A stretch of DNA of 64,000 nucleotides. Source: Obrimoposthia wandeli. Lineage: Eukaryota. Location of the stretch: contig CDROCS010003621.1 of NCBI GenBank assembly GCA_977020255.1, forward strand, positions 434,001 to 498,000, in the 5' to 3' direction. Positions 3,410 through 41,059 of this stretch are shown here, in pieces; positions within the stretch are counted from its first letter, which is position 1; the number at the start of each line of letters is the position of its first letter. The notes beneath the pieces were generated by a model that saw nothing but the letters and a program-made list of their open reading frames with translations, was not told the origin of the DNA and searched no databases. The position numbers and the translations under genes are program-made.

Positions 3410-4030
3410 ATAAATACAATGACCATAAGCCACACTCTGATTCTTCCCAATTCAGTTCCGCTTATTATCAATATTACTGAGCGCGTTTTTGGAGGATATT
3501 ATTGTAAACAGCTGATGATTTATTGATTGAATACTCTGCTGCTGCACACGTTAGCTTACCCCCGTCTCATATACTTAGCGATAATTCACGTGTTTTATGC
3601 AAATCTGATTCAAGCTCACCCCTTTTGCTCTCATGGATTCGGAGTCATTTGTATCAATCATGCTATATGACTTAGGACATAGAAATATGCATTCCTTAAA
3701 TACTCCCACACTCTCATCCTTAAATTTCCCTATAGCAGTGTTCGCCAAGGTGTAAAGGGGAAGTTGTTGCGGAAACTTTGAAGTATCAAGGAGAAGTTCT
3801 TCTAACATAGCCGGTAATAACTCGTTGGGAACATCAACATTTCTACATTTTAAGAAGAAAATATCGGTATCCCCAGCAAGTATTCGGATATCGCAATCAA
3901 ATTGTCTTCTATACTTTTCTAACTCTACATATTGCAACTTATACATGCGTAACTTACTGAGGTCTAAAACAGCCTGCCTATATAGCTAGGCCGATTCAAG
4001 AAGATGACTTCTTTATTTAACAATACAGCT
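3410..4030 (-). pseudogene. Polinton pPolB C-terminal relic
   Basis: LNRPSYIG..VLDLSKLRMYKLQYVELEKYR...AGDTD...IGKFKDES...CPKSYS...MRAKGV...AYGH; colinear with the pPolB C-terminus at 34600-35218. Confidence 0.9.
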
Positions 4031-4047
4031 ATTAAATCATCATCTAT

Positions 4048-4251: not shown

Positions 4252-5269
4252 ATTAAAAATATTAGAGTGTTGGAATAATGTTTATAGGACAAAAACAGTT
4301 ACTTAAAATATTTTATTAAACACACATTAAACACTATAAACAATAAAAAATTGTCTCCCAGGATATGCTCTTCTTCTGCTAAACGTTCCCTTGTTTCCTT
4401 TGACTGTGGCCCAGGATGAGACGTCCAACAGCCTTGTTATGAATTACTCTTCTTACATACTCGTTGAGAGTAGATCCGTTGCTTCGATGAGTCTCAAAGC
4501 ATCTTTTTCTATAAGATTTTTGGAGATGAAAGTATCCACTGATTTGTCAACATCTTGTTTGAAATAATTGTGAGTAGACATAATAATGAAGTAAGAATAA
4601 AAAATTGATATGTTTATATAATAAACAGCTAAAATTTGATTGGATACTGATTAACCAAGACAATGAGTCACAAAGAAACTAACTAACAAAGACTTTGACT
4701 CATAAATAAAAAAATAAATATTACACATCTTTAAGATAATGACTAAAAATAGGCATTTGATTAAACATAGTTTCCCTAGGAGCAGCAATATTACGTTTAG
4801 TTTTAACAAAATTGGAAGCAACAGAATCGCCTATTAAAAGAGATACAATGCAATAACAATGCAAACAACATGTAAATTACCATAATGACCACATATTAAA
4901 ACCTTGCCACCATTTTTGATAGTTTCTTTAATTATATTATTAGTATGTTTATAATATTTCATTATTATTTCTTCTTATTTTGAGTTTACAAAGATAAAAG
5001 TAAACTTCAATTTTTTTATAAAACATTTTATCAGTAGGTGGATGTTTCCAGTTTAATCCACTTCCCCCTAGGAGGCAAGAGGGTACCTCTGTCTTTAAGT
5101 AAACAGGAATCCATATTGACCCCATCACTATTAACTTGTCGTAGATTAGATTTTAGATGATAATTTTGTATGAATAAATGACTTGTTAGAAAGATAAAAA
5201 TATGTGGTTCAGATTCATATATTTTTAAGCAACAATTAATTTCAATATATTTAACAAAAAATCAAATAT

Positions 5270-5420
5270 AAAACAATATATTAGCTTCACTCAAAGTCCA
5301 AAGAGGTTGTACTTTTTCATCGGTATCAGTATGTTCAGTATCTTCATCTAAATTTGGAGCAATCAAATAACCTAGGTCATCAATAAAAGACAGACTGGGA
5401 TCATTTTAAATCTTAAAAAA
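5270..5420 (-). pseudogene. Relic of the Polinton right-end ORF (homolog of 41660-42064)
   Basis: Reverse complement reads DPSLSFIDDLGYLIAPNLDE...VQPLWTLSEAN vs DPSLDFKDDLGYLIAPILDE...MQPLWTLSEAN. Confidence 0.85.
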
Positions 5421-5489
5421 ATTTCCTTCACTCTACTTTATGTTCAACTAAAAGTAACAAATCGAGATAGTACTAATTTAGCAAAAAAT

Positions 5490-5929
5490 ACAGATGTAGC
5501 ACCTGTTAATTACTTCTTTAATTATTTATTTTATTATGCCATTGCTACTCTTAATAATGTTAAAATTGAAGGTGGAAATTCTTTATATGCTCATAAAGCT
5601 TTGATTGGAAGTATATTAAAGTATAGTACAGATTTCGAAGGTAACGCTTAAACCCTAGCTTATACCCAATATATTATTCGAAATTAGGTAAAACTAAATA
5701 AAAATAAAAACAATGGTATTTCTGTCATTAGGTTTAAAATCAGATGTCCGTTCTTCATATTTTTTTGCAAACATACTTTGATATAAACAAATGTCAACTA
5801 CCAGAAGATGGAAATTTACGAATAGAAATTAAATATAATGCAGCTTTAACAAATACTAATACAGTGATTATTTATGGAGTATTTGATTGGGAAATACAAA
5901 TCAACAAAAACAAAACATTCATATTGTAG
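5490..5929 (+). pseudogene. Polinton major capsid protein fragments (middle piece and C-terminus)
   Basis: AIATLNNVKIEGGNSLYAHKALIG matches the MCP near 36000. GNLRIEIKYNAALTNTNTVIIYGVFDWEIQINKNK is a typical Polinton MCP C-terminus. Confidence 0.85.
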
Positions 5930-6153: not shown

Positions 6154-7599
6154 TTAGCTCTCAGCCTCTCTTCAATTACCAGTACTGGTTCCTGCATTAA
6201 AAAAAATCTAACATTTTAAAAATATATAAAAATTGTATGTATGTGGCTCTTCGGGTCACCGCGGGGCTTCATATGTCCCTCTCCGGCATTTGAGTAATCT
6301 GTGAGTACACATGAGATTTTCAGTTTTAAGAGGTCTTAAATGGGGTTAATTAGTATTTTATGGTGGTGGGTGGGATTTGAAAACACTTTTATACATTACT
6401 TTATATAATTTAAAAAGTACTATATAGGGATTTAGTGGTAGTGGTATGGTACAGTCGGTACACTTGCGGACAAATCGGGGAATTTCAGAAACTAAATGGT
6501 AAGACAAGAATCATGGGGACCCGCTTAAAATCGCTCTTGATGAAATTCAAGTTTCCTATGCGCCTTATCTTCGAATTTCAGTTCACCACTTTGACCACTG
6601 TACCATCCACCGCCAGAAAACTGCTCTTGTGCAGTTGAAAGGTATATATAGGTCTCAGGACATGTATATATTTTTATACACCCACATGAACGAAATTTCA
6701 CTCCACACACATTCACGGTTTAAATGACAGTGGTAACCCCCAGGGGAATGGATTAGACCGGACACATCCACCTACTGACCTTTATTATGATCCTATGTTT
6801 CTTAATTTTTTTCTTTTTGATGTTAAAAATTTCTGTATTTTTTTATTATTTCCCATCACAATATATATTTGGCCAACCTATAAATATTAGTCATTAATAA
6901 ATTTAATTTAATTTGTTTGTCCATTTCTAGACCTTAACAAAACCAATGTTTGGTCACAGGAGGCCTATGTAGAACGTTGGAAATGGATTATAGAGTAAAC
7001 GTTTGGGTTTGATCAGGTGAAAAAATGAAAGAAGATAATACTAATTGTCATGTTCTTTCAAAACAGAAAAGTATTTTCATATTATGGTATCATATTATAC
7101 TATAATATCATTTTCATATTATAGTCACGTGATTTTATTGATTCACATGACCTCCAATGAACTTCAAAAGAGAAGATTTTTAAATCTTTTAGTTTATTTT
7201 AGAAAAAAGGACTGTATACTCCAGATAAACAGTTAAGATAAGTACAGATAAATATTTTAGGACAATTACAAAACTTTGAGAGATGACACAGTCAACTTAC
7301 TGACATGTCTAAACTGGATCAATGCATTTTGGTAGGGTAACTTTAATGTCAATGATACTGAAAGATCTGGAGTGTGCTCCATTATGATGTTGGTAGTGAA
7401 ATTTAAGACTTTAAGCGAAAATAGGCACGCCACAAGTAGGTAATTGTCAGCAGAGCTACATGTCAATCACAACACTGTATAAAGGCATAAAACAATCGAT
7501 TGTGAAGAGTTGTTAAAAGAGCTGAACAGCAATCCTATTTTGAGTCAGTTAATTTCTGTTTATTACTTTTCATGAAGAGGTTATCAGAAAGCATGAAGA

Positions 7600-8640: not shown

Positions 8641-10259
8641 GTATCATCAGATGCCAGATATCCCGGACAGTCTCGCATGAAACTTGTTTGTAGCACAGCA
8701 ATGTAATCCAATTTGAATTTTTGTGATTTTTAATGATTTTAAATACATCGCAATAATTTTATTTATTACAAAAACAATAGGCATATTTGGGTAACAAAAC
8801 ATTAAAAAGGCAAATAATGTAAGAATTAATACCAAAAAAAATCAATACTATGCAAATAATATTATCATATTGAAAATATAACTTTTAAATAATTGCTTAC
8901 GTATTAATATATTTTATATGTATAAACTCAACGTAAAAACGGCCGGTAGAGTGTTCCGCATTATAATTTTAAAAATCTGGTAACCATGAGTGTCATGCAT
9001 ATATTTTTCTAAATATTTATTTGTTTTGAATTAATTAATGATCTACTCATTAGAATTTTTGATTGTATTTTTATGCTCATTGCTGAACATCAAATTACTA
9101 ATTAATTTTCGAAGTAAAAATTATAATTTTTTGCCGAAAATGGCGGAAATTTTCAAAAATTTTCTCTTTTTTTGGTAGAACTAAAAAATAAATTTTTCAA
9201 TAAATTTCCTAAATTACTCTAAATAATATTATTTTATGTGTATTTCATTTTGTTTTAAAACATTTATGCATTCTGAAAAGTATATTTGAAATGCAACAAC
9301 AAAAAATTATTGGATTACAATTTTACAACGAAATCTCGACTTGATAGCTACATTTATTGATTCTAAATATCATAAATATTCAATGCCAATTAAAAATTCA
9401 TTCATTTGAATAACAAGATTATTTTGCGAAAATTCTGTGTCAAATTCTTTGAAATAACATTTATATAGTTTTTGAAAGAGTTGTAAAATGTCAGAAATTT
9501 TTCTCACAAGGAAACGTACTTTAGGTGTCATAAAAATTAGGAGTTCACAATTTGTATAAAAATTATGAAATGAATTCTACATATAAAAGTAATTTCATTA
9601 TCTGCTAGTTTTCAGTATATAAAAAGTTATCGAAAGAAACATTTATGTGATAAATTTATAAATGTGTTTAAATATATTAAATTATAGAAACACTAACGTG
9701 ATTATATGAATAAATATCAAATAAAAATTAATTTAATGAAATATTAAATTGTTATTGTTTAAAATAAAACCTTACCAAATTCTTATTGGATTTTAAAATT
9801 CGCAACACTATTTTAACTAGTGCGCTTAAATTTTTGGATTTAAATTATTTCATTAAACCAACTCATAAAATTTATTTTATAAAAATTTAATACATATAAC
9901 TTTTTTATTATAAATAAATAGCAGCTAAAACTACATTTTTAATATTGCAATATATTATGTTTATCATTTACTAAAATTTCACTGAGTTCTTTTTATGACC
10001 GTGCGAAACGTTTCCTTGTCAGTATATAATTTATAAGAATTATTGCACTTTTCTAAAAAATAGTTTAATGAAGATATAATATTTACATTTAAAACCACTA
10101 TGTACGCAATCTATTGTTGATTTTAATACAATTTAACATTATACACAATATTTATATTTAAAAAATATTATCAAAACATCATTGTCAAATTATCCTGAAA
10201 GGTAAAGTCCATATTATGTTTGCGAATATACACAAAAAACAATTTTTATAGCAATTTCT

Positions 10260-10700
10260 CAAGATGGAATCCATTGAGTTCAATGTACAGACGAAGACGT
10301 TGTATGAAGGACTGGTAAGTTCGCTCGATAACTTTGAAGTTAATGCTTCACAATAAGTGAATGAGCTTTACTCTCAGTTCTTTTGATATCAATATTGTTA
10401 GATCTGGGCTTTTATCCGGGACCATGCAATTGAATCACACCATCCAATATAACAACCAGGTAGATGCATATTCATTTCATGGAGTCCCATCTATTTGACA
10501 AAATGTATTCCAAGTTCCCTTGTGAATTAGCACAGGTATGACATATATTAATAAGATATTATTGTACCATTCTTTGTTTACTGTTTCTTCAATTGGAGAG
10601 GCTATGGATGCGTAAGGATTTTCTGCGAAGGTAGCAATACGTTTCAGGTTTTTGTTTCATAGGAAATCCTCAATTCACTATGATATTCTACTGGTTTATG
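10260..10700 (-). pseudogene. Degenerate Tc1/mariner-superfamily transposase C-terminal fragment
   Basis: SPDLTILDI and LRLYIELNGFHLE remnants on the minus strand. Confidence 0.45.
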
Positions 10701-10917
10701 CAGAAGCAATGACAAAGATAATAAAAATGACGGTTTCTTGTAATCGTTAAATAGTATAGAGTGTCGCCCTAGTCCCATAAGAAGTTTAGCTAGCATCATA
10801 GTTTGTGTATGAGTAAATTATACCTGTGTTTAAAAATAAATTTAGTTTTTTTATAAATAGCGTGAATTAAAATCTGGAATTGATCACTCCTTTCAAGCGC
10901 CGAGAACTAACCAGTAA

Positions 10918-11260
10918 GACGCTAATCAAAGCCCTGATACAGTCAGATGGTTGTCATTGACACTGATTGAGTCCGGCTTAGTTTTTGCCGATTTCTGGTC
11001 TTGGTTTGGAAAAAAAATCAAATTTTGCCTAACTGGCTTATTCAATCAGTTCTACACAACACAACAATAATTTTAAGGACTGTCACCTTATCCTGAACAC
11101 ACTCTTCACACAGCACAAGAAACCTTCAGAGATTAGAAAAATATCTTCACATTAAAACAGGTAGGCCACATCATCTGTAAGCCCTATCGCTACAGAGCTC
11201 ACGTTGGGGGTCTCTACAGGAGGATTCTAAGTTTCAATAGAAAACACCAATACAATTGTA
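10918..11260 (-). repeat. Dispersed repeat copy 1 (LTR-like family), inverted relative to copies at 15240-15420 and 20020-21245
   Basis: Shared blocks ccccaacgtgag.tct, tggcctac, tctgaaggttt, aataagccagttaggc, ggactcaatcagtgtc and ttagcgtc. Confidence 0.75.
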
Positions 11261-11367
11261 TCTGTAAACAATAAAAAGAGGTAATGTGAAAATTTCATCG
11301 TTAGGTCATTTATAGATAAATGGGACCATTCACGTTTCACAAGCCCTTTGAAAATAGTCAAAATATT

Positions 11368-12311
11368 TTAATCTAAATTCACCCAAAATGTATAAAATTG
11401 GTTAATACAGAGATCGATACATATGTTAGGATTAGGTTTTAACTTGGTTCCTGCCAATGCTATTGATTCTCTTGACAAAACTATTCCAGGATAGTTTGTA
11501 GTACTAACAGTCATTCCGCATCGCGCTTTATTTCTCTTTTTAATAAATATCAATTCTTCTTCTGTTGATGTTGCCATTAACAGTGTAGGTGTCGGCGTCG
11601 TAGGAATTGGTCCTGTTGTGTTATGAAATCCTTCTCCACCTTTATTATACAGGAACCCTTTTATTTTATTAAATTTAATTTCTTTCAAAAATACTAATGA
11701 GCATTGTTTTGGATCCGCGTGATACACAATTGTGGATTCACCTGTATGACAAGATGTATCTGTCAATCTACATTCAGGATACTTCATCATTCGTTTTGTA
11801 TTTTTATCAAAATTGGCGGTCCATGTTTTTAATTCGATCTGGTAAGTTACGTCCATTACTAAGGCTGTTACTTTGGTACCACGCTCGTTTTTTGTTCCTC
11901 CGTCACAAGATCCATCAGCCCATCGTCGTCCTACTCTCGTGACTGTTTCGTATCGTCTCACACCAATTTTTACGTCGGGTGTGTAATTCTTATCTATTTC
12001 TATGTTTCCTGTTCAAAATGCGTCTTCGCAATCTCTCGGAAAGACCTTGTGTGGTTTGTGGTAGGTGTGATTTCCGACATAAAACTTCTATGACCACAGT
12101 AAAATTTGTGATAACTTGAATGAACTGAACATTCCTTCACTTGTACCTGTATTTTATCAACATCCTGATACACGAAATAGTTTTCAACACATTTAATTTC
12201 TAATTTTGATGGTTGTGATTCTGGACAGTCTTCGCTGTCAAGCAGTGAATACTTTTGTCCCATCTGTAGTACGCTACAGTCGTATGCTACTAACGCTGAT
12301 GCCTGTTGCAT
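11368..12311 (-). pseudogene. Env-like class III fusion glycoprotein (chuvirus/Jingchuvirales G-like), frameshifted and C-terminally truncated
   Basis: LVAYDC...YSLLDSEDC...VQVKEC...FYCGHRSFMSEI...YQIELKTWTANFD...CRLTDTSC...DPKQC cysteine pattern. Confidence 0.72.
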
Positions 12312-14398
12312 TCAACGTCTCTTTAGCTTTACTAATTATCTTTTTCACATTTTCCATACTCTTAGCATTTCTTGCTGCTTCTATGTGATCGGTCATAGGT
12401 TGTGCGTTACACGTTTTCTCGATTGGTGTCTCATGCGCTACTAGTATTCGGTTCATTAAATCATTCATCTCTTTTCTCGAGTGCAGATATTCCCCTTGTT
12501 TCGACAACGTAGATGAATTCGCCATCTTTGTATGCGGTGAATCTTTAATTATTCCTAACATTCTTTCAAATTTACTATCGCTATCTTCAAAATCTATTTC
12601 GCGTCGAAGTTCGGTCTCGCGATTCCTATCGCTGTCATCATTTACGTAACTAAAATTTCCTTTCGATTTTGGTGAATTCTCACGACTATTTGTCTTGTCA
12701 ACATTATTGTTATTATATCTTCCGGAACTATTATATCTCTCAGCTCCTTGCTGTCCTACGTAATTATTGTATCTCTCAGCTCCTTGCTGTCTGTCTGCAT
12801 AATTATTGTATCTGCCTGGTGACTGTTGTCTATCCGTATACTGATTATTCGGTATCCATTGCGGCGGAGTATACCCACCACCTCTATTCCATGGCGGGGT
12901 GAATTATATCCTCTATAATTATTTCCAAAATTATTATTTCCGAAATTATTATTTCCAAATCTGTTAGTTCCGAATTCTTTACTTCTCGTACAATCTCTCG
13001 AGTAGTGACCCATTTGTTTACACGTATAAAACATTATTCTCCCTCGAATATCTATCTTATTTTTTTCATCTTCGAACTGTACTCGACGACTATTCTGTCT
13101 ATTGTCATAGCGTCCTCTAAAATCATTTCTTTGGAAATTTGATTCTAAACCGCTTCCTCGATTATAGAATCTTCCGTCACTACTTCCTGCATTATTTCCA
13201 AATCGATAGTCATTTCGCTCTCCTCTGTTTGCGTTATAATTCCTATCGTCTCCTCTCCACGGTTGGCGATTTCCTGAATTATCTCTACTAAATCTATTTC
13301 TGGAATCATCTCTGTTTCTGTTCCACGAATCATTACTACTTCGACCTCTCGAATCGTCTCGATTCCTGTTCCAAGGCTCGCTATTATTTCTACCTCTCGA
13401 ATCATCTCGATTCCTACTTCAGAAATTATCTCTGTTTCCGTTACTGGATTCATCTCCTTTTTCGAACTTATTTTGTCCATAATTTCGATTCTGAAAATTA
13501 CTCGGTTCTGTCTTATTCACAAATACCTTTGTCTTATCGTCATCACCTGCGGCCATTGCGTAAATTGCCAATGCTGCGTTATTTTTTATATTTTTCTCAA
13601 TTTCTCTCGCCTTTCGCACGGCGTTATCAAAATCATTTGTATCCGATACTGCCATAACACTTTAATGTCTTTTTTCAGTCCTCCTCTGAATATATCTAAC
13701 AAAACTTCTGCCATTTCATTTTGGTTCCGTTCATCTTCCGCTGCTTGTGCTTCTGAGGCTACAGGTTCACCTGCAAAATTTCTCACTATTCTTCTTGGGT
13801 GTGCTCGTGCGCCCAAGGTTCTCAAAACATACGCGTATTCATTCACGCTTTCGTCATGTTTCTGTTTCCGTTCTCTCATGATTCGCTTATTCACTTTTGC
13901 CAAGTCTCCCAATACCAATTTTACAATAAAAGCACTTTCCAACGTTTCCCAATTTAAACGTTCTGCTTCTGTCAAATGTTTATACACTTCAAGTGCCAAT
14001 CCGGTCAAATGTGCCTGTACGCGGACACATTTTTCTCTATCGTTCCATCCTTGAACATCTGCGCAACTCGAATATTCTGCGAGGAAGTCACAAATACTTT
14101 CCTCATCTCCTTTAAACTTTGTAATCTGCAATGATCCCGAAAAGTTGGGTCTCAACGTCGCATTCAAGGCTTGTGCCAACTGTTCTGCATTCATTCCACC
14201 TACATTATTTCCTGGGTTATTACCTGGTTGGGCTCCTGCTTGAGCGATATTTTCAGCTATATTCTCAGCTATTTCTTCAATATTGTCCAATTGAACTTCC
14301 TCAACCTCTACTGGATCGGCAATTTCAATTTCTTCTGGGTTTTGAACTTCAATAACTTCAATTTCTTCTTGGTTTATTTCACCAAACAAATCAGTCAA
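12274..14398 (-). pseudogene. gag: Ty3/Gypsy gag (capsid, N/R-rich repeats, degenerate CCHC knuckle), frameshifted
   Basis: ITKFKGDEESICDFL...WNDREKC...LTGLALEVY...W..LESAF...RKQKHDESVNEY..L...F.GGL; knuckle (F)YTCKQMGHYSRDC near 13030. Confidence 0.88.
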
Positions 14399-14744
14399 AT
14401 CAAAACTGTCGGTTGAAACTGCTGATTGATTAACGTCTCTTTCTGATACGTTTTCTTCGATTCGGGCTTCTTCTATTACTTATTTTATCAGTTTGAGGAA
14501 CCTTTTCAATTCGGCTAAAACTATTATTATTTATCTCTTCCTGTGGAATCTGACTTTGTCTTCTAGTATTAAACGCGGGTCCCTTTTATTATTCGTTGTT
14601 TTATTAATTATATATTCGTTTACGATATCAATTTACTTATTACTTTTTATCTTATTTCACAATTCTTATTTTACGATTTCTGATATCAATTTATTTAATT
14701 CGAGGACTTTGTCGATTCGACTTAACCTATTCAATTTATTTACT

Positions 14745-15085
14745 TCGAGGAACAATTCACTCGATTCACAATTTTATCCAAATTACTTAATTCGAGGAAC
14801 AATTCCACTCGATTCACAAATTTATCCAAATTACTTAATTTGAGGAACAGATCTACTCGATTTTCAAACTTTATCAAATTACTTAATTCGAGGAACAAAT
14901 CTACTCGATTTTACGAACTTTATCAAATTACTTAATTCGAGGAACAAATCTACTCGATTTTACAAACTTTATCAAATTACTTAATTCGAGGAACAAATCT
15001 ACTCGATTTTACAAACTTTATCAAATTACTTAATTTGAGGAACAAATCTACTCGATTCAACACTTATTCAATTACTTCGAGGAAT
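14745..15085. repeat. Tandem array, 49-bp unit, about 7 copies
   Basis: acttaattcgaggaacaaatctactcgattttacaaactttatcaaatt recurs at 14881 and 14930, among others. Confidence 0.9.
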
Positions 15086-15810
15086 ATATCAACTCGATCT
15101 CAAAACTTATTCAAATTCTCTTATCTCAATTTGCTGATATCTTCTTCTTCTGGAACTTATTCTCAATTTGCTTTCTTATTCTACGTGAAGTCGCTGTGTC
15201 CGACGAGCTATCCTCACTCGGGCGTATCAATTTAATATGCTGGGGTTTCTATATGAAACTGTTTTTCTAATATAGAACCTCTGAATGGAGGGCCCCAACG
15301 TGAGTTCTATAGAAGCAGGACTTGCAGATGTTTGTGGCCTACTTAATGTTATGCTTGCCTGTCTCTAAGTTTTTCTGAAGGTTTGTTGTTTCTAAATTTG
15401 AAGGTCTATAACAACGCTGTCTAGTTGTAGGAAATCTTTTATTACTAAACACACTAAGTTAACACTTCTAATTACGTTCTAAAATTGACAAACTATTCCT
15501 AAGACTTTCACAAAGTCTCTGCACAAGTGAGGATGAACCACGTATCGATTTTATTTTAGGGTTGATTTTAATGAGATTTCTAAATCAAACTCTTTTATCT
15601 CAATCTGATTCTCTAAATCAAATCCCTTAATTAAAACGGACAACTTTCTTTTTCTTAGGAACTATAACAAAACCAAAAACTTGCTCTAATTTATAGAGAC
15701 TTTTAGCAAATTATAAATTGCAACAGAATCAAAACTTGCTCTAATTTGCTCTACTTTTAGTAATTTATAAATTGTACGAAATCAAAAACTTGCTCTAATT
15801 TGTAGAGACT

Positions 15811-16080
15811 TTCAGTATAAATTCTTATAATTTATCAACGCAATTTATCTTCAAAATTGATTAAAAAACACAACTCTTTCTTTTTCTTTCAGTATAAATT
15901 CTTATAATTTATCAACGCAATTTATCTTCAAACTTTATTAAAAAACACAACTTTTTTCAGTATAAATTCTTATAATTTATCAACGCAATTTATCTTCAAA
16001 ATTGATTAAAAAACACAACTTTTTTCTTTTACTTTCAGTATAAATTTTTATAATTTATCAACGCAATTAATCGTCAAAAT
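15811..16080. repeat. Tandem array, 68-78-bp unit, 4 copies
   Basis: ttcagtataaattcttataatttatcaacgcaatt starts at 15811, 15888, 15956 and 16034. Confidence 0.9.
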
Positions 16081-19000
16081 TCTTCTCACCTCTGTATGAT
16101 CCGTTTGAGTTCCAGTTACTGTCCGATCTTGGCTTATCCGTTCGTTCTCCTTCCTGTCTTTTCAGTCCGGTCCGATTAGTTGGCTACGATCTGCTCTACC
16201 TCCGAATTGTCCGTTGGTACTTCCTCGAGCTGTCCGTTAATATTTGTTCGCGCTCCTTCCCGTCTGAAGGTCGAAATAATAGCTGTGTTTCTGAAGTCTG
16301 ATTACCTTTTCAGTCCTGTCCGATTAGTTGGCTCTACTTCTGATTTATCTTCTCAGTTTATTCCCGATTTATCTGGCCGTTCCTTAATCGATTTTTCGAC
16401 TTCAATTAGTTTTTTCTTTCTGGGCGTCAGTCAATAACAATTCCTTTTATATCTTCAACTTACACAGTGGCTGGATGCACTCAGTTTCTTCGTGTGCTTC
16501 CCCGGCTGTCGCTAAGTGGTTTCTCGACTCCTAAATAAATAAGTAACTTGCACTTAATTTAAGTGCTCTTACTTTCGTTGTTGACTTCCGGCTGTCGGTT
16601 CGTTCTGAGACTGGCTATCGGTGACTAAAAATCGATTGCGCTAATGGCGCTAATGCACTTGTCTGAGTGCTCTGGTTTTCTCAATTCCGTTTTTCTTCTT
16701 AATTGGCCTTCTTTCTTTCTTAATTCTTCTTTTTAATCAACTTTTCTTCTTAATTTAACTCTTGTTTTTTTGGGGCCTTTTGGTTAAGTTTAAAATCCCT
16801 TATATACAGCACACGCTTACACATGACCTTCGTGGTCCTAATATTTTTCAACTGATTTTATTTTTATAATTTTAATTTTATAATTAATTTTATCTTAATT
16901 ATAACCTTGCTTTCAAGGATTTTTATTTTAGTATAAAAATGATTAATTATTTTAAATTAGTCAAAACCTAATCCTAACACATACAACTAAAAGTGAAACC
17001 TCGAAACATAACTCACTTTTCATAATTACATTGAAAATGCTCTTAATTTGAAGCAGAATTCGTTGTCCTATTATGTTTTTCATTTTCTAAACTGAAAACA
17101 AACACATAAACATGAGAAAAATTGTTCGTTTCATATTGACATTTAGTGCATAACCCATTGAAGTGCTTAAAATATATTTAAATAATTATAGAATCGTAAA
17201 AGCTAAAAATAATTTTTATTTTGAACTAGTTCCATCAATTCTACTACCATCCTTTATTTTATTTTGCTTTTCATCTTTACCCTATCAGATAGATATAAAA
17301 AAAAATTATATACAATTTATATGTAAATTCATATAAAAATAATGAAAACTACTTGTTGGACTTATGAAAATTCATTGTCGTTTTTTTGCATTGATTCGGT
17401 CTGCTAAACAAAACCACCAAAAAGAAGTATTATAAATTTATTTTTATCTATAAACATTTAATATATATAAAATAAATTCATTAAATATCCACGCTTTATA
17501 GTAACCATTTTGAACCTATGGTACTAAACCTTTTTTTCGTAACTCCATAAACTACTAATTTAAAAATTATTTTTAACATTATTTCTCTCCATAATTATTC
17601 ACTATTTCTTTTTTATATTGATCAATTTTGGTTTCTTTCTTGCATTTTTTGATTTTACGTTCATATAATTCTTTACACCCATTTGTTTTACTTATTTTAG
17701 ATAATTCCATCATCATAGTGCAATATTTTTCATTACTGTATGCTTCAATCTGAACGGTTTCTGAATAAACTTCGCTCTCCAATCGAGACTTATTTGTAAA
17801 GTTTACGGAATTTATTTAAAAGTTTTTTCTAAGAAATCGATTAGTATAAAGTTTTTAACATGTTACCATTGCTAATCGATGCAAATATCTCCAGTCTTAA
17901 TGATGCAGGTAGCCATTAACAGTCGTTGCTCAATATTTTTGCTTTCTATTTGGAGAGCAGGTGATGAAGATTAAAACTGTTTATAATGAAAATGTTGAGG
18001 CAGTTAAGACTATGATGGAGACTGAATATAGAGTGACCATTTTTAACATATTTTAGATGAAATATTTGACAACAAAATTAAATAACCGAGACTCAAAGTA
18101 ATATCAATTAATTGGGCCCATCTCGTAAAATTGAGTTTTGGATGGATATATTTATGAACATATAGAGAAGCAATCACGTAATACTCATTTTCAATAAGCT
18201 ACATCAGTAAGAATAATCACATTTAGCAATGGCAAAGTGGAACTGCGGACTGATTAATCATACACAATCCCTATGATAATCATTAGCATAAAAATGAAAG
18301 CGTCAATAATTCTGTATAAAAATGAACATTTTCAATTAATTAGATTTTCTGTTTCATTGCTTTGAAATGAATATTGAAATTCCTTTCATTTTCTAATTAG
18401 ACATATATTATGCATGCTTTATTATTTTATGTACAAATAGCGTGAACAATGAAATACAATGTTATTTTCTAATATTTAGAGAAGAAGAAAAACTAAATAC
18501 CCAAGTTGATGATATAAAGACTGAAAAATTATATAATTATAAATTTATAAATTTATGTTTAAAAATTAATTAATATTAATTGTAAATGGCAAAATAGTTA
18601 AAAAATTACCAAACAAAAACATTAATCCTTAAACATAAAATAGAATAAATTGTCTTGCAATTTTATGCCAAAATTCTTATGAAATAGATAATCACTTACT
18701 GAGAATTAATACTAGTAGTAACACTTTTTGAATTATTTCTACACAATATTTATTATACAGTGAATAACACAAACCGAAAAATCCAAAGTAATCCACAAAA
18801 TTTAGTATACAAGCACAATAATATTCTTTACATCGCTATATTAATAAATTTACGATTTATTACTCAAAGAACTTCCTGTTTTCTATTATTCTTCGCAATA
18901 TTTTCTGAAAAATAAATTCTTCAACTGCTTCTTGAACTTTTCAACATTGTTTCAACAGTTTCTTATATTCATCGATAGATTGTTGTAAATATTCAGAGTA

Positions 19001-20076
19001 CAAATTTCAAATATTCCATTAATCAGTTTGTTATTTGAGAATTTCTTAACCAATCTGCCGTCATCATCGTTACTCCTAAGATGCATATACATGCTGATAG
19101 CACCAGGCTCTAGAAGGTCATATAAATACTAAGGCTTTTGTGAGATTTTTTTTGTTGATAAACAGTGTGATATTGAATTCCATCCTGGCATTGATCGGCA
19201 ACCAATGAAACTTCATTAAATGTTCACTTGTATTAGGATTTTTCTTTAATTTTAATATAATTCTGACGGCTTTGTTTATTTTTTTGCAAGTGATTTACTT
19301 GATAAGCTGAAATATTAAAAAGTAACGATTTTTAAAATTCAAGTCTTGATGTAAAAAACGCATGCATTAGCTTTATGGTTATCTCAGATGTAAGGTATTT
19401 TCTTATTAGAATATCTATTTGATATCTGTTATATGTTTTTTTACTATTAATTTGACTAAGCATTGGAATATTTTCATCGAAAAAGCAATAAATGTTCTTT
19501 ATTTTACTTTTTAAATTAATATTATTTTCATTGACATGTAGCCTCAGTTTTATTTTTATTCATTTCCAATTGTCTTGATTTCATCCTTATATTTTAATGA
19601 TAATGAATATTATATTTTTTTAAATAATCACTGTATTTGACGAAGTATAAATGTCCAATAGGATTAGATCAAGAATCGAACACTGAGGAACACCTCAATC
19701 ATGCAACTACGATTTGTTTGCAAAGGCGTAAATGTACTAATTAAAAAATGTATTAATTAAACTTAATAATCGTATTTCTTTGCAATTTAAACTCATACGT
19801 TGAAAACACTTAAGTGAAACTTAAGCTTTTGCATATCGATCAAGAATAAAATTAAGCAATTACCTCCTCAATTCGAGGTCTTTGCATAGAACCAAAATTG
19901 CCTCAAAATTAAAATAAAACAACTTTAGTTTTTTCGAATTTAATTCAAAGAATAATAAATTTATATAAAGCCCAGATTTTGAGACTTACATAAATGTTGG
20001 CGTTTTCTTTCAAATCTAGAATTTTCAAACGGAGGCCTCCAATATGAGTTCTGTAGCGATAAAGCTAACATATGTA

Positions 20077-21013
20077 CATGGTGTGATCCAAAATGTCACG
20101 GACTAATTAAGAAAGAATGAAAGAATTTAAAAAAATTATATATATTTTTATTCAATAAATGAACCGTTAACATCAACAATTTTATTCAAACGATTAAGAA
20201 GTTCCAGGAAGGCTTTTGAAAGAAAAGCTTTGTCTTGAGAGTTAAAAAAGGTGATAACTGCTCTTTGATCTCTTCAGAATCACTAAATTTAATACCTCTA
20301 AGAATCTTTTTCATCCGCTGGAATACATAAAAGTCGCTAGGAGCGATATATGGGCTATATGGAGGATGTGGTAGTAATTCAAATTTACAGTTGACTATTG
20401 TTTCTAAAATTTTCTTATCCACATGCAATAACCACAAAGGAATTTTTTTTCTTGTACACTTTCGAGCTTCCTTTAAGATCTTACAATAATATTCAGCATT
20501 AATTGTAACGGCTTCTCAAATAAATCTAATTTTAAAACTCTTTTATTATTCCAAAAAACATAAAGCCTCAATTGTCGTCTTTGAGAACTTCCCGTCTTTA
20601 ACTGTTTGGGCGCTGGTTAATCCTTCTTTTTCCATTTCGCCGATTGCCTGTTTCTTACTTTGTAACTTCAGAGTAATCTTGTTTGACATCTTCATTTCCA
20701 TGCTTAAATTTAGCAATCCAATAATATATTTTTGTTCTTTTAGGGCACGCATCTTTATATACATGCTATAAATCTTGAAATATTTCTTCATTCGAACAAT
20801 TCTTTAATATTAAAAACCTACCGATCTATACTCAATTTTCTTTATTTTCATTAAAATTTAACTTATATGCCTAAAATTAAGATTATAATCAACAAATTAA
20901 AAAATAAAAGTACTTTTAGCTACATTCAATAAACCTTCTATTTACACGATAAAAATTATCACAATCGATTGTTTCTTTCTTAATTAGTCTGGGACACTTT
21001 GGATCACACCATG
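20077..21013 (-). mobile_element. Internally deleted mariner element with TIRs and TA TSD
   Basis: TA|catggtgtgatccaaa ... tttggatcacaccatg|TA; minus-strand LLPHPPYSPYIAPSDFYVF at 20186-20437. Inserted into dispersed repeat copy 3. Confidence 0.9.
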
Positions 21014-24000
21014 TATATGGCCTAACTGTCCTAGTTTCTGAAGGTTTTTATATTGTGTTTAGAGTTGCAAAAATTCCCTAAAACTATTGTTGTGTGGTGT
21101 GGTGGTGAATCAATAAGCCAGTTAGGCTGAATTTAATTTTAATTCAAAAATAGTCTGGCAAAGCCAAGACCAGAAAAAAGGCAAAATTAAGCTGGACTCA
21201 ATCAGTGTCGTCGAATATGTCAGGAGTTAGGTTAGCGTCTCACTGATTAATCCTAGTTACGTCGACCTATCTGAATTCGTGGATGGTTCCTTTACAAGTT
21301 TTATGCTAAGGCTTTGCGTTTAATTTAACGATTTATTACTATGGCAACGCAGACACTAATTCTTTTCAGAGGATTTCTAGAAATAATTACTAATTCTCTA
21401 CCGGAGAATCAATAAAACAATTATGAATTCTTTACTGGAGAATCCAAAAAGGAAACAGTTACTAATTCTCGAATGAATAATTTACAAGCAAACTAACGGC
21501 GACATTCTATATGTTCGCAACCAAATCTTTATTTGACAAATACATTGGTTAACTTGTAGATAATTCTATCAAATACTCAATTATCAACTTTATAGATAAT
21601 TTCAAAGGTTTGTCACTTTACAATTCAATATATTTCCAAGAGATTTTAACTTTATATTATATGTTATTTTCCACTATTAGTTCTGGAAGATGTGGTCCAA
21701 TTGATTGGTCTCTCTTTGTTCTCTAATCCACAGTCCTCTGATACGCAGTCCACTAATCTACAGTCCTCTGATACGCAGTTCTCTAATACGCTATCCTCTG
21801 ATACCCTGTAACAATCTCCAACGAATATCTTGGTTCTAATGGATAGTTTGGCTGGTTTCGTTATAAATTATTGGGGCTCGCGCAATAAATCGATTGCCTT
21901 ATAAACTTGGTTGATCGGCGATAATTTCTCGAGGCCGGATGTTAGGCACACTGTGGTGCAACCGTTAGACGAATAATTCACAATTATGTGAAACTGACGA
22001 GATCGGATGTTTATCTGTCCTCGCTCGCTTCAGCCAGATGATTGGTGACTTCCTTTCACTGATTGTCGTCGCAGTATTCCAATTCTGCAGAAACTGCTAA
22101 TTAACTCGGCTTTTATAATAATTACCCCATTGCGGATGTCGACGACGCCAGATATCGCGTCGTCATTGTGCAGCCTCGTATTAAATCGGTGACTTCCTGG
22201 CACTGATTTTCATCGATAATTTCGATGTAGATTATCAATAAGTGAATTTGTCACTTATTGATTAATTTTCACCATGCAAACCCGGCAGCCCCTTGAGTTT
22301 TCGCTCCAATCTGTCACGGCACTTTTTTACATTTTACTTAGTTTTCTTCTCATGCTTTAATAAATTATTTACTTTAATTTAACTATTTTATAACATTAAA
22401 TTTCGAAGGTTATTTACTTTGTCTAAATTTTTTTTTTATTATTTAAAATTCATTCTCCCTAATTTTAACATAAATATAATTACCAGTGACGCACTTTAAC
22501 GGAATAAAAATCGTCATAATCGAGGTAAAACACCTAATGAGTGTGGTTTGGCGTTTTAAACACCTAATCCAAATGAATATTTCCGTTGTAAAATACCGAC
22601 ATAAAATCAATAGTATAAGAATAAAGTTAATAATAATGCATAGTAAAACTGACCATTGAAATTAGCATCTGTCATCAGTCAATGATGCTATAAAAACTGA
22701 TGTATTATCTACTATAGTAGGCATACAGTCACACACCCACAAGGCAGAAAAAGGTGTTTGTCATGTTTTCTATAGTGTGTTATAAAAATTGAATAGTTCC
22801 GTGAAAAATCAATTGTCTTTAGTTTTAATAAAAAATCATGAAGCAAATCAAAAATATAGCCCCTATCGGTGAAAGGATGATTCAGTTTACGAACTATTCA
22901 GAGCTGTTATTTTTTTTAACTTTTAAAAAGAAGTGAATGAATGGGTCAGTTCAAAACGAGCTCACAACGAATCAATGAATGACGAAGTTTGTGGGTATGA
23001 TACAATCTTCAATCCAGGAGTCCGAATTCCGGGACTTCAGAAATCAATATCACCATATAAAACGATTTGTTCATCAATGTTTAGATGAATATGACATTTT
23101 TGGCGACTGAGTGTGATTTTTTAATACAATTTAAATAAATGTCTTACCTTTTCTTGTGTGTTTAATGTAAAATCCAATCTATGTCTAAGATATACAAAAA
23201 ATACAGCAGAGTACATACTTACTGAGTCCATTTTAATTAGGTGTAGTACTCATTACTCATCATAATATTTCTCATCATCACTGGTATGTTTAGTTTAAAC
23301 CCTGTTTATTATTAGATATTTGTATTTTTAATAATTTGCTTTATTAAATTTTGCCTATCATGGAATTATTTTAACGAAGCATCTCTGAATTTATATAATA
23401 ATCAAATAAACAAAAAATATTTATAAAATATCATTTTTATCATTCATGTCTCCTAAATACATGTAAAAACTGGCATTTTTTCAACTAAAGGATCACAATA
23501 ATTTGGTTTAAATAATTTTAAATAGTCTAAATGTCAAATGAAATGGGTTTTGAGGGAAATATTTTCTACAATAATGTATGTAGGTTAGATATAAAAATAA
23601 TTTACTCAATTTTTTATCTATGTTAAACTAGATTAATAATATATTAATATTTTTGCATTATTATGAAGTTGAAATTTATGTTACAAACATTATTTTTATT
23701 TAATAAATTTTTTAACTTTTGAAATATTTTGTTTCATGTTAATCTCAAAATTACCTTTTAAAGCAACTTTATTAAACATATAATTTTAAATATAGAAAAA
23801 TTTAAATCAAAACATATAAAGTTTAGATTCGTTGTCAATTTAATATTATTTACCTATAAAATTAAAATGAATACGATTGAAGAATACCGCTTTTACACCT
23901 ATAAATATAAGTGCCTTATCCTTATTTAATAATAGTGAAATTTGTTATGAAAAAGGTTTTCGATATTTTAATCTTAACAAATAAATGATTTACAACTATC

Positions 24001-27119: not shown

Positions 27120-27680
27120 AGTAGGTGGATGTGTCCGGTCTAATCCACACCCCCCTCCCCCCCTTGTCCTTTAAAACCGTGCATGTGTGTGGAGTGAAAT
27201 TTCGTGTAGGTGTGTGGAGTGAAATTTCACTCCACACACATGCACGGTTTTAAAGGACAAGGGGGGGGTACCCCCCTAACATTTTTTCGCGCCTTTCGGC
27301 GCGAAGGGCTCGGGACCGACATTGGTCACAGATATACGGATATCTCGTTCTCATATAGGTCACAGACTAGCTTGGCGATGTACGGATGTCTCGCTCTCAC
27401 ACCACACCACACCACTCCACACCACACCACGCCACGCCACACCACACCACACCACACCACACCACACCACACCACGCCACACCACACCACCGAAACACTC
27501 CACCCTCCGCCCGCCCCTTCGGGCGGGCTCTATTCTCACGAAAATAACTACAAAACATGCGCTACAGTATCACTTTACCTCTCACAACTACAAATGTAAA
27601 CGACCCGTGTCATACCCTAACATATACCACCCGCCCCTTCGGGGCGGGCTTCATTTTTGATCTACAGGCACAAAAAACAT
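27120..27680 (+). repeat. Left TIR (internal palindrome, 46-bp repeats, CACCA microsatellite, GC hairpins)
   Basis: Reverse complement of 42134-42816, with few substitutions. Confidence 0.95.
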
Positions 27681-27770
27681 TACAAAAATTATTTGAATAA
27701 GAGGCTCTCATTGGACAATAAAAGAGGGTTAGTACGATGTTTGTGTATATAAATTTTTCATAAATCAACA

Positions 27771-29120
27771 ATGCCATTCTACAACAACGTTGACCTAGAC
27801 GAAGAGACGGATGTTCAACTCTATGGGGATCTCTCTCCAGTGCAGCAGCGAACGCCACCACCCTCGCAATACATTGACTTAGATAGTCAAGAGTCATCGG
27901 TGGTGAGCGAAGGAGAAGCAGCAGCAAGAGCGAACCTGTTGGAAGCCTTATTGGCCAGCTCAACTCCAAGAGAAGAACCAATGAACGTGAGAGGTGGGGT
28001 ACAGAGATCCCAATATATCGATCTGACTAGTCAGGATTCGATAGAGAATTGGGAAGACTGTACTCCCAGACAAAACACAAAACCCAAGCGTCCGGCAACT
28101 TCAGCAGTAGCAGCAGGGAGATCCAATCTCTTCGATAATTTTGAGGCGGCAATCAAATGCCCCTGGAAATTGATCCCGCTGTCTCAACCGGAGAAAGTCC
28201 TCGCACCAGACTCAGACGAGGAGCTGTTCACCAATGATGTACCTTCGGATTGGGAGGAGGACTTGACTCCATTCATCGACGAATGGATACAGCCAAGTAT
28301 CGGAGCCCCTGAAGCCAACGAGTCGATGGTAGCAGAATTGGACGAGGACGAGTGGCACCTGTTCACCGACGATTGGGATGGTCTCACTCCCTCTGCTACT
28401 CCGAAAGCAGATAATACAATGCCTGAACCATTCAAAAGGCCAAAATCTCCTGTTAGGAGAATAAAACCGACGAATGAGGTTAGACATCATTTATTTTAAA
28501 TGTTTTTTAATTTCATTTTCAGAAACTTCAACTGGATATGGCACCGTCAGTGACCATGGTGGAGAGGCTAATTGAACCGCAGTACTTGGCGAGTCAATGC
28601 AGCCAGGAGCTGCCAAGGAGTCAGCTCCGATACCTAGCGTCTCCAGATAATTTTAAGGTAAATTATTTAGATATTTAATTTAATAATTCACATAGATGGA
28701 GAACATTCACGAAGAGGCGACGTCTATTCAACCGGTGGATAGGAAGCAAGCGGCAGTTAAGAAACCGCAACGCCATCGGGTCAAAACCCTCACGCGGAAG
28801 AAGGCCAAGTTGGTGAAACAGGCTAACCTGCCCATCATTGAGGTAAATTATTTATATGTTTAAATTTTATTAATATTTTGCAGGAACCCGTCCAGATATT
28901 TAAGGAGACTTGGGGAGAAGTTACTCCTTTCTCGCGGAAACGGACGAAGAGGGCAGAGGTGAAGAAGACGAGGCGCTCGAGAAAATGTAAAACCTCAATT
29001 GTTCATTATTCTGAGACGGTGATTGGCCAGCAGGAGTCCGCCCTCAAGTCAACGACGCCTGCAGGAGACTGCTTCTCCTCGTCCAACAACCAGCCAGAAC
29101 TTGAAGAGGGCCTGGGATGA
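27771..29120 (+). CDS. Spliced 408-aa acidic/basic low-complexity protein; join(27771-28478,28523-28657,28696-28842,28884-29120)
   Basis: Three phase-0 GT-AG AT-rich introns (44, 38, 41 nt). Exons of 708, 135, 147 and 237 nt are all open in one frame. Confidence 0.8.
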
Positions 29121-29505
29121 CGCTGGATTGGATGAATTCCTGGCGGAACTGGATTCACCGGCAATGCTTCCAGATTCGCGTGGGCAACATGATGCCGTCT
29201 CACGCCAGCTTCAGCGTGAGAAGGAGGAGAAACAGAAGAAAGCTCCACGGAAGAGGACTTCTACGTCGGAACCATCAACATCGGCTGCACCTCCTCCCAA
29301 AACGTTGCGGCAACTTTTGCCAAAACCTGAGGGAAGGACAATTGCTACAAAGCAACCGGTGAAGCTGAAAAAGAAACCGGGCCGGCCAAAGAAGAAGGAA
29401 CCAGTACCGCTTTCTCCTATAATACTTAGTCGGAGGGATTACGACCCGAATGATCCCAATGATGACTTCGTAAAGATGTTTAAAAATATAATTTATAAAC
29501 ATTAG
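29023..29505 (+). CDS. Basic Pro/Lys-rich ORF with AT-hook-like KKPGRPKKK; either the frameshifted true C-terminus of the previous gene or a separate ORF from ATG 29164
   Basis: GC-rich open frame overlapping exon 4 of the preceding gene. Confidence 0.55.
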   Translation: MASRSPPSSQRRLQETASPRPTTSQNLKRAWDDAGLDEFLAELDSPAMLPDSRGQHDAVSRQLQREKEEKQKKAPRKRTSTSEPSTSAAPPPKTLRQLLPKPEGRTIATKQPVKLKKKPGRPKKKEPVPLSPIILSRRDYDPNDPNDDFVKMFKNIIYKH

Positions 29506-29699
29506 TTTCATATGTTTTCTTCTTAATATTTATTTTTTTAAATGTAGAAATACTATCTTTAAGTTTATTTGCAATGATAAGTTATAGATTTATTAAACAC
29601 TCATTTGATAAATAAAAATATATCATTTAATTGGATTAAAAAATATCTTTAATTTATATATATAGGTTCAAATTTATTAACCTTTTCATAATTAAAAAA

Positions 29700-30029
29700 A
29701 TGGAATTCATTAATATGAAGAGTCTGGTGACGACGATTGAAGCAAACATCAGAATAAATGAGAAGAAAGGGGACTTAAGAAAGAGGGTTCTCAATCAAAA
29801 TTTGTATACTGCTGTCGCGACCGAGTGGAATCATCGGGTGGAGATACAGGATAGGAGGCTAGCAGAACGCCGTCGAATCGTGGAGTGGAATAAGAAGATC
29901 GAATTGGAAAAAAGGAAGGTGGATGAAAAAAGAAGAGAAGAGATGGAGGATGTTCGGCGAGCAGCAAGAAAGAGAATCCTCCAGATTAAACCGGAAGAGG
30001 GTCCTTCCACAAAAAAATTAATTTTATAG
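29700..30029 (+). CDS. 109-aa charged coiled-coil protein with LRKRVLNQN (SERTA-like) motif
   Basis: ATG ORF preceded by ATTGG and TATA; SERTA resemblance is weak. Confidence 0.6.
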   Translation: MEFINMKSLVTTIEANIRINEKKGDLRKRVLNQNLYTAVATEWNHRVEIQDRRLAERRRIVEWNKKIELEKRKVDEKRREEMEDVRRAARKRILQIKPEEGPSTKKLIL

Positions 30030-30153
30030 ATTATTATTTTGTCTTCATTGATTATGTTATAAATTGTCTAAATACTACCTCGTCATTTTAATAAATTTTT
30101 GATTAATAGTTTTTCGTTATAAACAACGGGATTTGCTACAGATTTGGGTAATT

Positions 30154-30641
30154 ATGCAGGAATATATCATAGATTTTGAGGCTTTCATTAACAAAATGGG
30201 GATTATATTATAAAAGAATTATGTATTATGGATGTATGCGACGTTTTTCATCCTTTGCATTTCATATTTCATATAGATATCCCATTTAAAAGTTTTTATT
30301 ATAAGAAAAAATTTACTAATTTATATCTAACTAAATATTTCCATTTATTAAAATGGAAAGAAGGACATAAGGCTTTTTGTGAAATATGTATTTTCGATAC
30401 TATTAAATTTAATTTTGAAATTGAAAATGGAATTTTTTATGTTTTAGATGACATGGATGGCAAAAAATATATGACTTTAAAAAAATATTTTCTTAAATTG
30501 AGGTTGAATACTTTAAATATTTCACGTGATCATCTATTAAAAATTCCACGAAATATTTGCTGTCCATATCGTAATCATGGTGACCATTGCGCATATAAAA
30601 AATGTTTAAGTCTTTCTTATTATTACTTGACATGTAGATAA
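30154..30641 (+). pseudogene. Small DEDD/DnaQ-like nuclease-fold protein with C-terminal Cys/His cluster (1-nt frameshift near 30195)
   Basis: MQEYIIDFEAF..(N)GDYIIKELCIMD...H...W..G...CCPYRNHGDHCAYKKC. Confidence 0.55.
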
Positions 30642-30841
30642 ACAATTCTTCTAATTCATAAATTTCATTCAATTACAATTAAATCTTTTGATTGGAGGAA
30701 TAAAAAAATATTTTTTTCGACCATTTAACAGATAAACAAACCTTCTCAATTTTTTAATCCAATAGGAAAAGAGCATGTGTGCATAAATTTTAGTATATAA
30801 GCAAACACTTTCTTCATTTAAATCCCCGACAATTTGAAATA

Positions 30842-35218: not shown

Positions 35219-35492
35219 ACGGTTTTCATTTTTTGATTTTTTTAGTTTAGTTTTTAAAAATTTAGATCCTTATGGCACTTAGACTCTAACTTATTTGTTA
35301 TTTCAATACTTTTTTAGGATGGACCTTATTTATTATGCCTTATCTTTGCTGACATATCTCATTGTGATGTTGTGATTAATAAATGTATTAAAAAAAATTG
35401 TCTTATGTCTTTTATTATTTTACCCTTATATTTTTAGAAATTTAAAAAATAATTCAAAATAAAACATTTAAATTTTTTATTTTTATAACACA

Positions 35493-36340
35493 CTAATTGT
35501 TTTGCAACGATAACCATAAAATACATAAAAATTGAAAAGAAATTAAAATGAATTTCGGTAATCTTACATCACCAAATATTTGATCCTTATTAAAAGCTTG
35601 TGTACCCGTACCTAAAGAGTAGGTTATAAGTTTAGTTTCTCTAATAGGATAACAAGCATTGTTTTTTTCCATTCCTATATTATGTCCCATTAAAACTGAT
35701 TGCTCGGTTTTAACTCTTCGGACATACAATTTTGCATCCAAAATATCAAGTCTAGGTTTTAGAATGTCCGTGCTTATCAAAGAAAAATTCCATTTATTAC
35801 GTTTCAAACGAAGATGTACATTAACACCGGGAATTAAATATTTCGGTTGTTCAAAGAAATTCAATCTCAAAGACCCACACATTTCGTAAGCTTTAGAACC
35901 TGCAATCCATTCTTTGCGAGTTGCATCAGTTTTATCATAACCAATGGTTGCCAAATTAGTATTTTGAGTATCAGTACTATAATTCAAAAGACTTTCAATC
36001 AAAGCTTTATGAGCATAGGAAGAATTTCCACCTTCAATTTTGACATTATTAAGAGTAACAATGGCATCACTAAATAAAGAATTAAATAGATAATTTATAA
36101 GTGTTACATCGGCATTTTCATCTAAATTAGTACCATCCCGATTTAATACTTTTATTTGAACATAAAGCAAAGTATCATTCAAATCTAAATACTCGCTATT
36201 GGAACCATTAATATTAAATCGGTTAAAGTGGTTCCTGAAACTGAGTTAACAAGGAATATTTCTTCAAAGGAAGCATTATCTACAACTACTTGTGGAAGCG
36301 GTTTATCAAAAATACATAATTCAGTTTTGGCGCAACTCAT
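35493..36340 (-). pseudogene. Major capsid protein (double jelly-roll), frameshift near 36215, C-terminus missing
   Basis: ATG at 36340 overlaps the upstream TGA; MSCAKTELCIFDKP...YLDLNDTLLYVQ...LFNSLFSD...KYLIPGV..L.L.R...YPIRETK; ends prematurely after LPKFILIS. Confidence 0.9.
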
Positions 36341-38827: not shown

Positions 38828-38859
38828 CCATATCTTTAGCTGATTTTAGAAATAATTGT

Positions 38860-39189: not shown

Positions 39190-39220
39190 TTTAATAAAAA
39201 GGGTTTAATTTAAATATTGT

Positions 39221-39361: not shown

Positions 39362-39368
39362 TGCGAAT

Positions 39369-40003: not shown

Positions 40004-40040
40004 TGCATATACTCTTTCATTTTTAATATTGTTTATATTA

Positions 40041-40843: not shown

Positions 40844-40859
40844 TAGACTGAAATTGTAT

Positions 40860-41030: not shown

Positions 41031-41059
41031 ATGCATCATTGGAGGACAAATCACAGTAA

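Follow-up and report, generated by a model that had tools for sequence, protein, structure and literature searches.

We analysed a window of 64 kb from Obrimoposthia wandeli (64,000 nucleotides of contig CDROCS010003621.1, numbered here from its first letter), in which a candidate insertion unit on the minus strand comprises a putative LTR, a leader, a gag gene and the first ~45% of an env gene (Table 1). The initial annotation had placed gag and env at 11368–14398. Both genes do lie there on the minus strand, but homology to env ends near 11445, and the 5′ part of the unit, which extends to 16979, had been missed.

Table 1. Features of the insertion unit and of one adjacent relic, in window coordinates.
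Feature	Position	Strand	Basis and remarks
Whole insertion unit, TG..CA ends	11424..16979	-	5,556 bp; terminal inverted arms and flanking duplication
Target-site duplication CATA, right copy, 4 bp	16980..16983	.	directly outside right arm
5′ terminal arm, 21 bp, presumed start of 5′ LTR (U3)	16959..16979	-	20/21 identical to other arm
Putative 5′ LTR, ~1.68 kb, ends in CA	15301..16979	-	position, and motif common to two neighbouring relics
PBS-like motif, TGG start, 3 nt after CA	15286..15297	-	motif present at 3 places in window
Leader, 49-bp tandem repeats	14684..15117	-	repeat analysis
gag capsid region, first in-frame Met 14194	13419..14479	-	Pfam, tblastn; frame switch near 13660, stop 13419-21
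gag R/N/D-rich linker with defective zinc knuckle at 13031	12905..13418	-	Pfam, motif
gag tail/spacer frame, low-complexity then ordinary sequence	12274..12903	-	ORF reading
gB/chuvirus-type env, N-terminal ~290 codons	11445..12311	-	stop 12013-15 and frame switch near 12070; central helix and transmembrane part not reached
3′ terminal arm, inverted copy of unit's first 21 bp	11424..11444	-	begins where env homology stops
Target-site duplication CATA, left copy, 4 bp	11420..11423	.	directly outside left arm
Older LTR-like relic, PBS-like motif at 11205, opposite orientation	10419..11216	+	target, outside unit; unit ~200 bp downstream

Broken gag and env genes

In a Pfam scan of 29 ORFs, gag matched Retrotrans_gag at E 0.002, which is below the cut-off, and the knuckle-like motif at 13031 matched zf-CCHC at E 3.9e-5. 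A capsid-like region (14170–13796) aligned by tblastn with two relatives from the env search described below (P0012, 4e-19; P0007, 4e-11). The Gypsy-like gag and its knuckle motif, both claimed in the initial annotation, are thus present, but the knuckle is defective and lacks its first cysteine. Similarly, the tail that had been described as ~700 bp of low-complexity sequence exists as a reading frame, but low complexity is limited to its first ~100 codons. The spacing from knuckle to env is 248 codons, which compares with a span of 233–625 in five relatives, and a Bcl-2-like domain was not detected in this gag-env spacer.

The env gene begins with LVAYDC, as had been noted, and matches the Pfam family PF24664 (Monjiviricetes_fusion) in two pieces, with E 1.6e-9 over positions 18–95 and E 6.3e-5 over positions 129–286 of 653. 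The fragment therefore covers only positions 18–286 of the family, and the last ~25 codons of the env ORF consist of the terminal arm and flanking DNA. A weak tblastn extension that would have continued env to 11134 was dropped, as the profile match reaches no further than 11335 and most alignments end by ~11440. All 13 relatives with at least 30 residues ahead of the env start motif carry a hydrophobic helix there (peak 2.15–3.68), whereas no hydrophobic signal helix precedes the window env in any frame (at most 0.35).

The predicted structure of the window env fragment (mean pLDDT 84) matched the fold of five chu-like or mivirus glycoproteins in BFVD using Foldseek, at E 0.001 or better and 12–16% identity, the best chu-like virus glycoprotein reaching E 6.5e-6. 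The same fold comparison against the PDB gave nothing significant for the fragment (best Z 3.2; rabies G 3.0; HCMV gB 2.8). For the near-complete env of relative P0009, however, herpes gB was matched at E 7e-14 with a TM-score of 0.29, and structural alignment gave Z 10.1 with an rmsd of 9.3 over 389 aligned residues. These models place the env family among the class III fusogens and support the same predicted fold for the window fragment, in agreement with the chuvirus-type class III fusogen that had been proposed. A PDB sequence search with the env piece gave no match, one with the env family profile gave proteases and unrelated weak rows only, and word-index homologue searches with the env and gag pieces gave no match.

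The reading frame is broken six times, by frame switches near 13660, 12905, 12310 and 12070 and by in-frame stops at 13419–21 and 12013–15. The overlap of the gag tail frame with the env frame at 12274–12311, which the initial annotation had reported, was confirmed, and it is best read as a lesion because the signal helix is missing. Programmed frameshifting is not supported, since no slippery heptamer occurs at the gag-env junction or at the 12905 switch and the only two heptamers identified are some 70 and 35 bases away from the remaining two frame switches. To search for pol, we scanned the window in six frames with a profile built from five relatives. The only match was the integrase of a Polinton at 38.2–38.6 kb, which upholds the earlier reading that protease, RT, RNase H and retro-integrase of the family are absent, here throughout the 64 kb.

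LTR retrotransposition needs a 3′ LTR and a purine tract. Neither was found for the unit, which for that reason could not retrotranspose. We conclude that the unit is a dead relic that is unable to make Env or to retrotranspose.

Relatives of env and their gene order

A phmmer search of 1.84 billion representatives with the env ORF of 214 residues returned 43 matches (best E 6e-27). The nearest sequence relatives are retroelement polyproteins, with 38–39% identity to the window env for the top three and 35–39% for the best relatives overall. In intact relatives a single ORF runs from gag through a spacer and a signal-anchored class III env to protease, RT, RNase H and integrase. Among the 18 longest relatives (at least 447 residues), Pfam identified PF24664 in 17, a knuckle ahead of env in three, and protease or pol domains in 10, always C-terminal of env. 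Using our own profiles for gag, env and pol on all 43 relatives, we found pol after env in nine, pol before env in none and a CCHC motif before env in five; these counts are partly circular, since part of this set of relatives went into building the profiles, which does not apply to the Pfam scan. Env reaches position 560 of the 640-position profile in 12 relatives, 10 of which run in frame into protease and two of which stop at the membrane segment. The RT motif Y[IL]DD occurs in five relatives, and the four that reach integrase have the order PR-RT-RH-IN with no Pao-specific Pfam family listed at E 0.01. Assignment to a Ty3/gypsy-type pol is read from these relatives, as the window copy has no pol and hence no RT of its own to classify.

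P0007 and P0012 match both the window gag (14170–13796) and the window env, in colinear order. Together with the single pair of ends that the two genes share, this bears out the earlier assumption that gag and env belong to one element. In an env tree of 24 rows without an outgroup, the window env sits on a long branch and is unplaced among rows of the gag-env-pol type.

Several relatives carry additional domains. Bcl-2-like segments between gag and env were aligned in P0001, P0007, P0009 and P0026, with Pfam support in P0009 only (E 0.00096); ubiquitin-like and exonuclease-like stretches were seen by eye between gag and env in relatives among P0001, P0007, P0009, P0026, P0003, P0008 and P0018; and several env relatives bear repeated protease domains after env.

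Because relatives are ordered gag-env-pol and the window spacing falls within their range, the adjoining gag and env appear, on comparison of sequences, to stand in their native order, with pol belonging downstream. Pol would be absent because the copy ends inside env and, judging from the relatives, pol lay beyond that point. The description of the unit as a pol-deleted copy therefore needs qualification: pol has been lost, but the gag-env junction is no scar of its removal, as env is native between gag and pol. More generally, gag next to env without pol need not mean a deletion or a satellite.

Elements of this kind have been described. In the planarian Gypsy elements Burro and GYPSM1, env lies in frame between gag and pol and matches fusion glycoproteins of arthropod and fish mononegaviruses, according to the portion of Arkhipova and Yushenova (2019; PMC6431247) drawn on here. 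Bcl-2 and ubiquitin-like cargo are known for Burro. The window shares with these elements a mononegavirus-type fusion env placed after gag, but it is far smaller, with a short 248-codon spacer, one knuckle and no Bcl-2-like or other cargo domain detected. The text of Chary and Hayashi (PMC13524379) used here reports that F-type and gB-type env are equally abundant and widespread in Ty3/gypsy, that 114 gypsy elements carry the chuvirus-like glycoprotein of BEL/Pao, and that the GAG-ENV-POL order occurs in Nematoda, Bryozoa and Platyhelminthes. An earlier study (PMC10084718), which in the part cited found no clear capture by Gypsy in its arthropod set, is superseded by this work. The statement in the initial annotation that Gypsy env is usually F-like is thus outdated, and an independent new env capture by a Gypsy lineage, as inferred there, is contradicted by the prior publication of both the gag-env order and the env type (PMC6431247, PMC13524379, as far as their cited portions go).

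The closest published elements are Smed_errantivirus_1-6, Platyhelminthes GAG-ENV-POL elements of gB type (C1a) in the cited part of PMC13524379. As in the window, gag directly precedes a gB-type env, and inspection by eye of the rows presented there revealed env motifs and cysteine spacing in common. In the rows of supplement 2 that we compared by eye, every occurrence of TGES (3/3) and TNYP (1/1) falls in a Schmidtea C1a row, and both motifs are present in the window env. The first stretch of relative P0039 is closely similar to Smed_errantivirus_1, also by eye against the sequence given in that source. The window copy differs from these six elements in that it is broken, stops inside env, has inverted arms, belongs to a divergent family, and has neither continuous gag, env and pol ORFs nor an LTR pair. 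We therefore file it by descent in the GAG-ENV-POL gB-type Ty3/gypsy lineage and not as an intact errantivirus. The Anakin BEL/Pao elements with a chuvirus glycoprotein (Dezordi et al., 2020; PMC7642597, in the part cited) share the fusogen class and Pfam family of the window env, but they belong to another superfamily. The window gives no Pao-type gag match, and its relatives have a Gypsy-type pol; Pao-type gag and protease domains of Pfam were absent from the window pieces at E 0.1 and from the 18 relatives at E 0.01. The mosquito BEL env rows that PMC13524379 displays in the part compared are without the motifs common to the planarian set and the window.

Taken together, we consider it very probable that the unit descends from a Ty3/gypsy LTR retroelement of GAG-ENV-POL order, of the type of planarian Smed_errantivirus and Burro, and is now a defective, dead copy, which adds one divergent, decayed family to the published lineage. 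Its parent element would have encoded a single polyprotein that proteolysis would separate into Gag, Env and Pol, and the Env would be expected to trimerise and fuse particles into other cells.

Ends of the unit and its origin

Both arms of the unit begin with TG, and their outer 17 bases are an exact inverted repeat (11424–11440 pairing with 16963–16979), which extends to 20/21 identity. The other six such inverted pairs in the window all lie within Polinton hairpins. As a control for chance, 60 simulated AT-rich windows yielded 98 exact inverted 17-mers, three of them with a 4-bp duplication. Exact inverted 17-mers are therefore common, and the case for the ends rests on the duplication and on position: the arm lies at the break in env and at the edge of a purine-skewed span. 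The element strand is purine-rich in most 300-bp windows of 11424–16979, and the skew flips below ~11300. The 3′ arm reads on in the env frame. In the window, the gag-env junction and ends occur once, no second copy of the arm was found, and there is no internal copy of the CA arm within five mismatches. TG..CA ends with duplications of 4–6 bp are the norm for LTR elements (PMC12440569, in the part cited), and the termini of the unit with their 4-bp duplication agree with this pattern for Ty3/gypsy; a TIR element may be their source instead. A likeness of the unit's start to a TG-start near 10396 was rejected as not significant, since 3672 of 7576 TG 30-mers score equally high, and an Rfam scan of 9000–23000 gave 0 matches.

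The boundary of the putative 5′ LTR and the PBS-like motif were placed from a shared motif rather than from an LTR pair. This motif, in which CA is followed after 3 nt by TGG (15301/15297), is common to relics at ~10419–11216 (+) and 21813–20032 (−), with 72% identity over 102 nt and a score of 51, compared with a maximum of 30 in 300 shuffles. The PBS-like copy at 20043 shows by eye two mismatches to a tRNA-Thr 12-mer in the cited part of supplement 1 of PMC13524379. The putative LTR also holds a TATA-like box at 16806 and 77-bp tandem repeats at ~15670–16100. With three related LTR ends lying within 11 kb, the lineage seems to have accumulated locally.

The unit may have been inserted as one piece by a Gypsy-type integrase or a transposase, to judge from its TG..CA ends and 4-bp duplication. 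For its structure we favour, at an even chance, an origin as a defective cDNA whose 3′ end came from a template switch from env to the element's own 5′ end. The product of such a switch would be a short DNA carrying one LTR end twice, both copies integrase-ready, which would account for the clean duplication and for a junction that retains no more than the terminal bases; after integration the unit would have decayed.

The foremost alternative, which we regard as unlikely though worth weighing, is that a retroelement of the same gag-env-pol ancestry was nested in a non-autonomous Ginger2-like TIR element and that a later deletion took pol, the 3′ LTR, what remained of env and most of the left half of the TIR element. 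Ginger2 elements (Bao et al., 2010; PMC2836005, in the part cited) have TGTNR termini, a 4-bp duplication, an RTATAY target and TIRs of about 50–180 bp. Like Ginger2/Tdd elements, the unit has TGTNR termini, inverted ends and a 4-bp AT-rich duplication; its target agrees with RTATAY at 5/6 positions, the 150 bp just inside the right arm have a GC content of 17%, and a further TG-start lies near 16822. However, the arms measure 21 bp, the unit contains retroelement cargo and no integrase or transposase, whereas Ginger2/Tdd elements have a Gypsy-like transposase, the window holds no second arm copy, and the deletion would need to stop within the last 21 bp.

Rather unlikely, in our judgement, is an ordinary full-length insertion with LTRs ending in a long inverted repeat, followed by two deletions, one that removed everything from the 3′ half of env up to the final 21 bp of the 3′ LTR, the other the end of the 5′ LTR. 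The type of termini and duplication is that of LTR elements in general (PMC12440569, as above), and the copy has suffered another small loss at the gag-env junction. Yet two independent precise events would be needed, the LTR-end/PBS-like motif at 15301/15297 is a different one, and an internal CA arm within five mismatches is missing even though the two arms are 20/21 identical. What probability these three readings leave falls to ends produced by chance or by other causes.

It is improbable that the unit represents a Gypsy derivative with two inverted U3 ends, an LTR turned TIR, that was copied in this form by a Gypsy integrase or a Ginger-type transposase. This reading is based on the proposal, made in the cited part of PMC2836005, that Ginger TIRs derive from two LTRs in opposite orientation. 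If true, the unit would capture, in a natural example, the conversion of LTR to TIR from which Ginger DNA transposons have been proposed to arise, and inverted ends with a clean duplication, if recurrent, would show how an LTR element gains TIR ends.

We consider it very unlikely that the unit is a pol-less gag-env satellite that spread by the pol of a helper, a suggestion of the initial annotation that is unsupported. In its favour, integration did take place and left a clean duplication, whether pol was already missing from the piece or was lost afterwards. Against this reading, it has no 3′ LTR or purine tract, its env is without signal helix, C-terminal half and membrane anchor, and the six frame breaks add to the damage. 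Among the 12 relatives with near-complete env, moreover, none clearly finishes env without pol. A narrow word search of the literature for pol-less gag-env satellites returned nothing relevant.

The least probable reading, that gag and env are unrelated neighbours or that a Gypsy gag lies beside an env from a chuvirus EVE or from BEL/Pao (Anakin), draws on the PF24664 and Foldseek links to chu-like viruses and on the frequent flanking of chu-like EVEs by Gypsy pieces (PMC10084718, in the part cited), but it is largely refuted by the colinearity of both genes with single polyproteins, their one shared pair of ends, the lack of a Pao gag domain in the Pfam results for the window pieces, and an identity of 35–39% to the top retroelement envs against 12–16% to the five best viral glycoproteins, values obtained by different methods.

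The missing pol of the preferred GAG-ENV-POL copy is an ordinary loss, and its inverted-repeat ends alone are unusual. What is new here is these ends with their target duplication, whereas the gag-env order and the gB-type env were already known. A narrow word search of literature listings for insertions with inverted LTR ends found nothing relevant.

Other elements in the window

The relics at 10419–11216 (+) and 20032–21813 (−) are related, ~0.8-kb, LTR-like sequences with PBS-like motifs and without coding remains. They resemble each other further upstream of the shared motif as well (0/200 shuffles), and no likeness of either to the 5′ region of the unit was found beyond that motif. When the two flanks were tested for continuity against the leader of the third relic, the result was not above shuffles. 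Inserted in an LTR-like relic is a mariner-like relic (20072–21018), flanked by TA and with inverted ends. Its broken frame contains an HPPYSP motif, which we take to be mariner-type.

A decayed Polinton/Maverick of 15.7 kb occupies 27120–42816, with hairpin-holding TIRs of ~280 bp at 96% identity. It encodes pPolB, an integrase with a chromodomain, an A32-like ATPase and a TBP-like domain (40044–40742, E 1.7e-11); TBP is also named in a figure legend of an adintovirus paper (PMC8502044, in the part cited). An N run at 42190–42505 lies inside its right end, and scattered pieces of the same Polinton family occur at 3575–4041, 5033–5633 and 6679–6776, mostly in the opposite orientation. The exact tandem duplications at 44661–44851 and 48438–48774 may be assembly artefacts.

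GC-rich exons of a probable host gene lie at 50993–56878 (−). Database searches with these exons gave no match, and the gene presumably resembles PDZRN3/4 or Slip1. The end of a non-LTR element falls within 1–1750, followed by short related repeats, and we assume that a pattern at 3–854 represents a restriction-like endonuclease. Near the other edge of the window, an open 630-codon frame at 61401–63293 (+) encodes a hAT transposase with a Spin-doc zinc finger.
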